NCBI GenBank assembly: GCA_964016885.1
Contig: OZ024747.1
Coordinates: 61,690,001-61,754,000 of the forward strand
Source of the DNA: Eledone cirrhosa
Lineage: Eukaryota
Reading direction: 5' to 3'
DNA: 64,000 nucleotides
Shown: piece after piece, positions 44,999-45,253 of the stretch
Numbering within the stretch: position 1 is the stretch's first letter
Layout: the number at the start of each line of letters is the position of its first letter
Made by a program: the position numbers and the translations under genes
Notes under the pieces: generated by a model
What the model was told of the DNA's origin: nothing
Database searches by the model: none
What the model saw: only the letters and a program-made list of their open reading frames with translations

Positions 44999-45253
44999 TC
45001 ATGGGTTCAATTGGGGGTAACCACAGTTAGTAAAGTACTCAATACTTAATAGAGTGTAAACATTTAGTTTTAATATAGAAATGGCTTCTACAAAACTAGA
45101 GCTGTTTCATTCAAAAGAAATCATCATGAATGTGATGATTTCTTTTGAATGAAACAGTTTTAGTCCTGTAGAAGTCATTTCTATATTAAATATTTATACT
45201 TTGCTATGTATTGAGTACCTTACTTACTGTGGTTACCCCAATTGAACCTGGGA
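44999..45253. mobile_element. Full ~255-bp palindrome of the 50573 hammerhead family
   Basis: Arms meet at TCATCA-TGAATG-TGATGA (45121-45138). Confidence 0.85.

Follow-up and report, generated by a model that had tools for sequence, protein, structure and literature searches.

The closest described systems are Penelope-like elements and the animal retrozymes, and what is said of published systems here follows the accessible parts of the sources cited. Penelope-like elements form inverted, 5′-truncated copies and partial tandems, favor microsatellites and carry a tail at one end only, by a mechanism that has been called undefined (PMC8557442). Hammerhead motifs have been reported in pairs on opposite strands, 100–700 bp apart; in animal hammerhead motifs, a self-complementary loop III permits dimeric folding, and in Penelope motifs, the G10.1-C11.1 pair is highly conserved (PMC4209133). 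In purified form, a Penelope-like protein cleaves AT-rich DNA and extends its two strands; it is predicted to be a dimer, and in the accessible text of the same study, no RNA reads ended at the hammerhead cut site (PMC11167929). Animal non-LTR retrozymes are arranged in tandem with approximately 300 bp per unit (PMC7229834), and a Penelope origin has been proposed for retrozymes (bioRxiv 10.64898/2026.07.22.740005). How Penelope-like elements make tandem and inverted structures and what the hammerhead does are stated as open questions (PMC8557442).

The palindrome studied here (44999–45253, 255 bases) lies in a stretch of DNA of 64,000 nucleotides (the window) that is rich in microsatellites (23,439 of 64,000 bases masked). 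In it, a short and highly abundant repeat with a hammerhead motif is present twice, the two copies lying back to back (head to head). Comparison of the window with itself bore out the original prediction of a complete palindrome (E 1e-66, 81.7% with gaps). The left arm (44999–45126, minus strand) and the right arm (45133–45253, plus strand) both start at U4 in the core of the hammerhead and extend as far as the natural 3′ end of the repeat; they are separated by a spacer of 6 nt at the turn (45127–45132). Alignment of one arm with the other gave 105 matches, 16 mismatches (16/121 aligned bases) and seven gap columns. The 3′ end of the left arm is followed by (CA)n and then by (TA)n, that of the right arm by (TA)n with CA interruptions. 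The (TA)n/(TG)n tract to the left of the palindrome (44957–44998), which is common to the 3′ end of a copy from a sister family (44829–44956), is likely both target and tail. As regards the target-site duplication or the one-ended tail of 30–40 bp expected of a Penelope-like element, a TA/CA string of 16 nt is present on both sides of the palindrome; it is of low complexity, and few bases distinguish the ends of the arms. In many copies, (CA)n follows the 3′ end of the element on the sense strand and precedes (TA)n (at 44998, at 26101 and in loose ends of reads), reflecting either a strand-specific choice of target or a tail added during priming.

In L1 twin priming, two primers at one break give an inversion in which two nonoverlapping parts of one RNA are copied. 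This candidate was rejected because both arms of the palindrome hold the same segment. The full inversion and the TA-rich target would also fit a DNA-type element bounded by terminal inverted repeats (a MITE), or else an artefact of amplification or assembly, to which we attach almost no weight. The same sequence also occurs uninverted and 5′-truncated with a fixed 3′ end, and a MITE was rejected since both ends would then be fixed; an amplification chimera was rejected on the divergence between the arms given above.

BLAST copies of the segment in the window comprised only the two arms, 50580–50703 and 26013–26101; the family has three uninverted-equivalent loci in 64 kb. As foreseen, the right arm (45133–45255) aligned to 50580–50703 (87.2% over 125 columns, E 9e-37), and the third copy (26013–26101, plus strand; 87.4%) begins shortly before the GUA site: its 5′ truncation lies in loop III at the equivalent of 50609, 6 nt before the G, and the cleavage site is kept. 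The copy around 50 kb, which includes upstream sequence (50519–50703, plus strand), had been taken for the uninverted form of the same family. It aligns with the arms, but differs from them in stem I and loop II and thus represents a different subfamily.

This uninverted copy holds a complete type I hammerhead motif at 50573–50623 (plus strand), and thus 7 nt further upstream than the start of the interval in which the full hammerhead had been placed. Stem I (50573–78/50618–23) comprises 6 bp and is followed by C3 at 50579; stem II (50587–89/50594–96) comprises 3 bp and is closed by a noncanonical U·U at positions 10.1/11.1; GAAA occupies 50598–601, and stem III (50602–04/50613–15) comprises 3 bp plus A15.1-U16.1. 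All type I core bases are present between 50579 and 50617 (C3-U4-G5-A6-N7-G8-A9, G12-A13-A14, A15.1-U16.1, H17), and cleavage is predicted after A17 at 50617, with 50618 as the first base past the cut. Loop III is self-complementary, with a calculated energy of −12.8 kcal/mol for the self-duplex. A strict hammerhead descriptor gave one match in the window and one match among 300 locally shuffled windows. In Rfam searches, 50400–50740 (E up to 10) gave four matches with no hammerhead family among them, and for the whole window the best 150 of 312 matches included no hammerhead family; these were microRNA and snoRNA models, none of which reached the gathering score. The hammerhead fold (−4.8) lies 3.7 kcal/mol above the minimum-energy fold (−8.5), and on free folding the motif was no better than shuffles (z 0.01), so that folding energy lends it no support. 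The original description as ribozyme-intact thus holds for the core bases; it does not extend to the G10.1-C11.1 pair, which is replaced by U·U in this copy and in both arms, to a match with an Rfam hammerhead or to the minimum-energy fold. We regard 50573–50623 as a hammerhead by motif, with self-cleavage as a prediction from sequence.

The start of the RNA may lie close to this motif. A TATA-like TATAAATA (50541–50548, plus strand) is located 32 nt upstream of stem I and recurs in the loose-end consensus of runs X1 and X4. RNA usually starts 25–31 nt from a TATA box, which would place the start at approximately 50566–50572 and suggests that the RNA begins just before stem I.

In the palindrome, the right arm begins at U4 and thus lacks C3 and the 5′ strand of stem I, in accordance with the predicted loss of both, but decayed remnants of both may persist in the left arm. 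When read in the direction of that arm, the spacer agrees with C3 and the 5′ strand of stem I at 4/6 positions; the same 6-mer recurs exactly (6/6) at 45146–45151. Its origin is therefore ambiguous, either as a decayed remnant of the left arm or as a templated copy of 45146–45151.

Abundance and junctions of the family were determined in four public runs aligned to 50434–50722 at 80% likeness. From organism A, 11,656 contigs (run X1) and 11,400 reads (run X22) aligned, together with 41 contigs from organism B and 7197 from organism C, part of these records stemming from a separate repeat at 50452–50506. The family is high-copy in all three organisms. In X1 and X22, the depth was high across 50594–50680 and fell upstream of 50564, to about a tenth in X22 and a few percent in X1. 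The loose ends that precede 50576 (224 and 187 contigs) ended in GGCT and agreed poorly (0.42–0.43), which indicates that in most copies stem I is different and the sequence upstream of it mixed. In X22, 39 and 42 reads had go-back joints of 77 and 78 nt, respectively, with 11 starts each, and such joints were also found in X1; they show short tandem units that hold the whole motif (region 50559–50638). The separate repeat, which is itself high-copy, lies just upstream of the intact copy and again at 14550–14640. In one contig from organism C, it is linked to the motif (skip of 89), so both may be parts of one parent element.

Translation of the family copies revealed no shared frame, and no frame for an RT or a GIY-YIG endonuclease adjoined any copy in the window. 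Exact-pattern scans gave 0 loci in metagenome contigs, viral contigs and prokaryote genomes. In the main texts of the openly accessible literature, we found neither a description of the family nor junctions mapped to a ribozyme.

The 3′ part of the repeat contains an 11-nt hairpin motif, GTATTGAGTAC (45208–45218, plus strand), which recurs at eight places in the window, spread over three sister families, and is likely a cis signal. It ties the focal family to two others, B and C, which have a parallel GAAA, stem III, self-complementary loop and UH. Among the seven window insertions of the three families, four are inverted, two are plain truncations (in loop III at 26013, and downstream of the motif at 10890–10973) and one is intact. 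A family B copy (14231–14430, minus strand) carries a short inverted second arm and turns approximately 16 nt upstream of GAAA; another (44821–44956, plus strand) starts a few nt before GAAA and is preceded by an inverted piece of 13 nt with a 2-nt overlap; a family C copy (52688–52880, minus strand), likewise with a short inverted second arm, turns 12–19 nt upstream of GAAA. Together with the focal palindrome, the 5′ half of the ribozyme thus holds the turn in 4/4 inverted junctions of the window. The hairpins at the centers of the B and C copies were rejected as proof of a natural stem II, as any palindrome has a central stem and the argument would be circular.

In the reads, the best 15 of 40 joint rows, which are the best supported and not a sample, contained 11 strand-switch rows, and all 11 had one end at 50576 (5), 50579 (2), 50594 (3) or 50596 (1); the other ends lay at 50595 or 50640–50661. 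These positions are biased by the reference, because most copies diverge from it upstream of 50576 and at 50620–50640; turns lying further upstream would be counted in the pile-up at 50576, the divergent stretch hides ends near the cut site, and RAD reads may stem from few loci. Loose ends before 50575 were observed in 401 X22 reads, and by hand comparison their consensus matched the reverse complement of 50598–50627 at 21/30 letters (19 of the last 23). By sequence, these ends are readily interpreted as a turn at which ATTC of stem I overlaps the complement of GAAT in stem II. The predicted clustering at the ribozyme is supported by the window and the reads. A single exact turn at the core, as originally claimed, was not supported: the turns are scattered over approximately 25 nt between stem I and the bases immediately preceding GAAA, with none at the cleavage site. 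Clustering of this kind is also expected if the transcript starts just before stem I, and the junctions could then simply mark the RNA start.

Confinement of the junctions to the ribozyme region raises the possibility that self-cleavage sets the turn, with the cDNA stopping and inverting at the cut end of the RNA. The stem I variants 50575 A>C and 50621 T>G, which were found in separate rows and would restore a pair if linked, and the tandem units of 77–78 nt, which would permit dimeric folding, also speak for this reading. Copies made in this way should start at 50618, but the arms begin 38 nt further upstream, with the cut site retained in both, and 0/7 insertions in the window start at 50618. 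On the ribozyme side, the 11 strand-switch rows likewise include no end at this base, the other ends being unresolvable across 50620–50640. Moreover, ribozyme mutants of a Penelope-like element insert normally in vitro (PMC11167929, accessible part). Cleavage was rejected as the cause of the palindrome turn, which does not lie at the cut site, and as the cause of the 5′ end at 26013, where the cut site is retained; overall, we consider a role of cleavage in setting the turn very improbable.

The two arms have diverged unequally. Across 117 three-way columns, private substitutions numbered 12 in the left arm and three in the right (p 0.035), and the left arm carries an additional insertion of 6 nt; across 82 four-way columns, the ratio was 10 to 2 (p 0.039), or 9 to 2 without the column beside the insertion, the test being post hoc and marginal. 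The right arm differs from the unlinked copy at 26 kb at 5/82 columns and from its own mirror arm at 14/82. At both bases flanking GTATTGAGTAC, the left arm alone agrees with all four sister-family copies, and the two changes together pair. At the 3′ end, one arm reads GACT(CA)n and the other GATA, and the family-wide loose-end consensus includes both types. A subfamily of the left-arm type was not found in 40 of 171 variant rows. The unequal private changes and the greater proximity of the right arm to an unlinked copy favor two RNA templates over one snapped-back cDNA, and the arms were likely copied from two different RNAs.

An origin from a single cDNA is the strongest competitor and has perhaps one chance in three. 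One RNA would give one cDNA that stops near the RNA 5′ end, folds back over a 6-nt loop, primes the full second arm and then joins (TA)n. The near-symmetric center agrees with such a course, as does the spacer if its 4/6 agreement reflects C3 and stem I; the inner 25 nt of the arms, including the TTTT of loop II, are identical (0/25 versus 16/96 differences, p 0.04), although only the loop II bases are informative within them. The three sister junctions, whose short second arms end at TA-rich spots beside (TA)n, fit plain snap-back. Snap-back after full-length cDNA is known from R2 (PMC11371274), and self-priming has been deduced from junction palindromes of rotifer Penelope elements (PMC3846280), each according to the accessible text. 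Against a single-cDNA origin stand the 12 versus three private changes, the unlike 3′ ends, the closeness of the right arm to an unlinked copy rather than to its mirror and the sister-family states of the left arm; under such an origin, the arms would have diverged unequally at a later stage, by chance or by gene conversion. A short snap-back followed by annealing to a second cDNA would be a hybrid that fits both sets of evidence.

Unequal divergence and different 3′ ends would also be accounted for by two independent insertions in opposite orientation, either joined later by loss of the DNA between them or made when a new copy inserted against an older one. Copies are dense in the window and have a (TA)n target in common. 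Such an origin nevertheless requires both copies to break within 6 nt of one position, and it is at odds with the identity of the inner 25 nt and with strand-switch joints that recur at the same few places in two organisms; we consider it unlikely.

Our preferred reading, to which we assign a probability of about 0.45, is that the palindrome is a two-template insertion of the hammerhead-motif repeat by a Penelope-type protein, with the two cDNAs joined in the 5′ half of the ribozyme. The repeat itself is likely a nonautonomous or heavily 5′-truncated Penelope-like element, an assignment that rests on resemblance, as none of the copies comes with a frame for an RT or an endonuclease. The process would begin with one break in the (TA)n/(CA)n tract, from both ends of which the protein would prime reverse transcription, using two different RNAs as templates, one per end. 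The two cDNAs would be joined where each had ended, in the ribozyme 5′ half and not at the cut site, through pairing of a cDNA 3′ end, possibly after a snap-back of at least 25 nt that anneals to the other cDNA. The ribozyme would then act as the RNA 5′ end and as a cluster of self-complementary helices rather than as an enzyme. A more far-reaching version, which we offer as speculation with the odds clearly against it, is that a dimeric protein copies two RNAs from one break, that the helices of the hammerhead, and not its cleavage, pair the two cDNAs and that thousands of palindromes record this process.

The tie between palindromes and hammerhead elements that had been proposed holds for the focal family. 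It did not extend to three other palindromes of the window (39359–39410, 54125–54335 and 60625–60960), in which a relaxed hammerhead search gave no match. This search misses turned copies without the CUGA box, so a decayed hammerhead origin is possible for 54125–54335; its arms match at 75% with gaps, its unpaired center of approximately 50 nt has the size of a hammerhead core, and there is no other copy of it in the window. The short palindrome at 39359–39410 (92%) lies beside (TA)n. The palindrome at 60625–60960, with arms 98.8% identical and centered on (TA)n, holds part of a common short repeat together with approximately 40–85 nt of its flank and adjoins a 99% direct duplication (59904–59999 and 60531–60626); it is either a recent inverted duplication or an assembly artefact. 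Two further hammerhead-like motifs from other families (26240–26285 and 55285–55332, both minus strand) have a very short, self-complementary stem III. Stem I is weak in the former, whereas the latter is closed by U·U and has U at position 17; both fail the strict descriptor.

The window also contains remnants of coding elements. Broken RT-like frames at 4661–5669 (minus strand), interrupted by a microsatellite, resemble a Naiad-type Penelope RT in their motifs; the two RT-like fragments at 4853–5567 matched 0 families in Pfam. A LINE-type frame of 456 aa (51291–52661, minus strand) encodes RVT_1 (E 5e-28) and, downstream of it, a cysteine cluster of PHD-like type, and short 3′ fragments of it are scattered across the window. 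A fragment at 58784–59200 (minus strand) is a candidate transposase remnant that resembles mariner.

This short family has thousands of copies, falls into several subfamilies and shows recurrent junctions, which makes it a natural data set for both questions raised at the outset. It can show whether one or two RNAs enter each inverted insertion and whether junctions track helices, the RNA start or the cut site, and the palindrome is mechanistically useful in this respect. If the junctions mark only the RNA start, what remains is an ordinary case of inverted insertion, in a family for which the literature searches gave no description.

The repeat resembles animal retrozymes, which are likewise short, noncoding and AT-rich, carry a type I hammerhead and have a Penelope origin proposed for them; retrozymes also occur as solo copies (PMC7229834; bioRxiv 10.64898/2026.07.22.740005). 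Retrozymes are marked by tandem repeats with one hammerhead per unit and by expression as linear and circular monomer RNA. The repeat differs from them in that the window copies are single or inverted rather than tandem and in that the tandem units in reads measure 77–78 nt versus approximately 300 bp. The word "inverted" is absent from the accessible text of PMC7229834, and that of PMC6431247 adds nothing further on junctions. The snap-back of R2 (PMC11371274) is comparable in that a cDNA 3′ end primes on cDNA and antisense sequence is joined to the target, often after full-length cDNA; R2 is another retroelement with another target, and in the focal palindrome the two arms are unlike and each extends to the natural 3′ end. 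Relative to Penelope-like elements, the accessible descriptions of which include a telomerase-like RT with a GIY-YIG endonuclease and a conserved G10.1-C11.1 pair, the repeat shows no such frame and has U·U in place of the pair; junctions in the ribozyme 5′ half and arms apparently from different templates are features for which we found no counterpart in the literature. With the Penelope-like elements that have inverted pseudo-LTRs, Penelope/Poseidon and Neptune, it shares a head-to-head inverted 5′-truncated copy, a palindromic junction and a fixed 3′ end (PMC8557442, PMC3846280, PMC4209133), as well as a microsatellite target, a TATA box, partial tandem duplication and a type I hammerhead with self-complementary loop III. 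Penelope traits found here are thus a hammerhead in the repeat, the four inverted junctions of the window, the 77–78-nt go-back joints and (CA)n/(TA)n after 3′ ends, both in the window and in the loose-end consensus. We infer that the repeat is a pseudo-LTR, which would insert in the way of Penelope pseudo-LTRs while being kept apart from the proven members. Inverted insertions bearing hammerheads in microsatellites have already been described for Penelope-like elements, and the palindrome is probably a further case.
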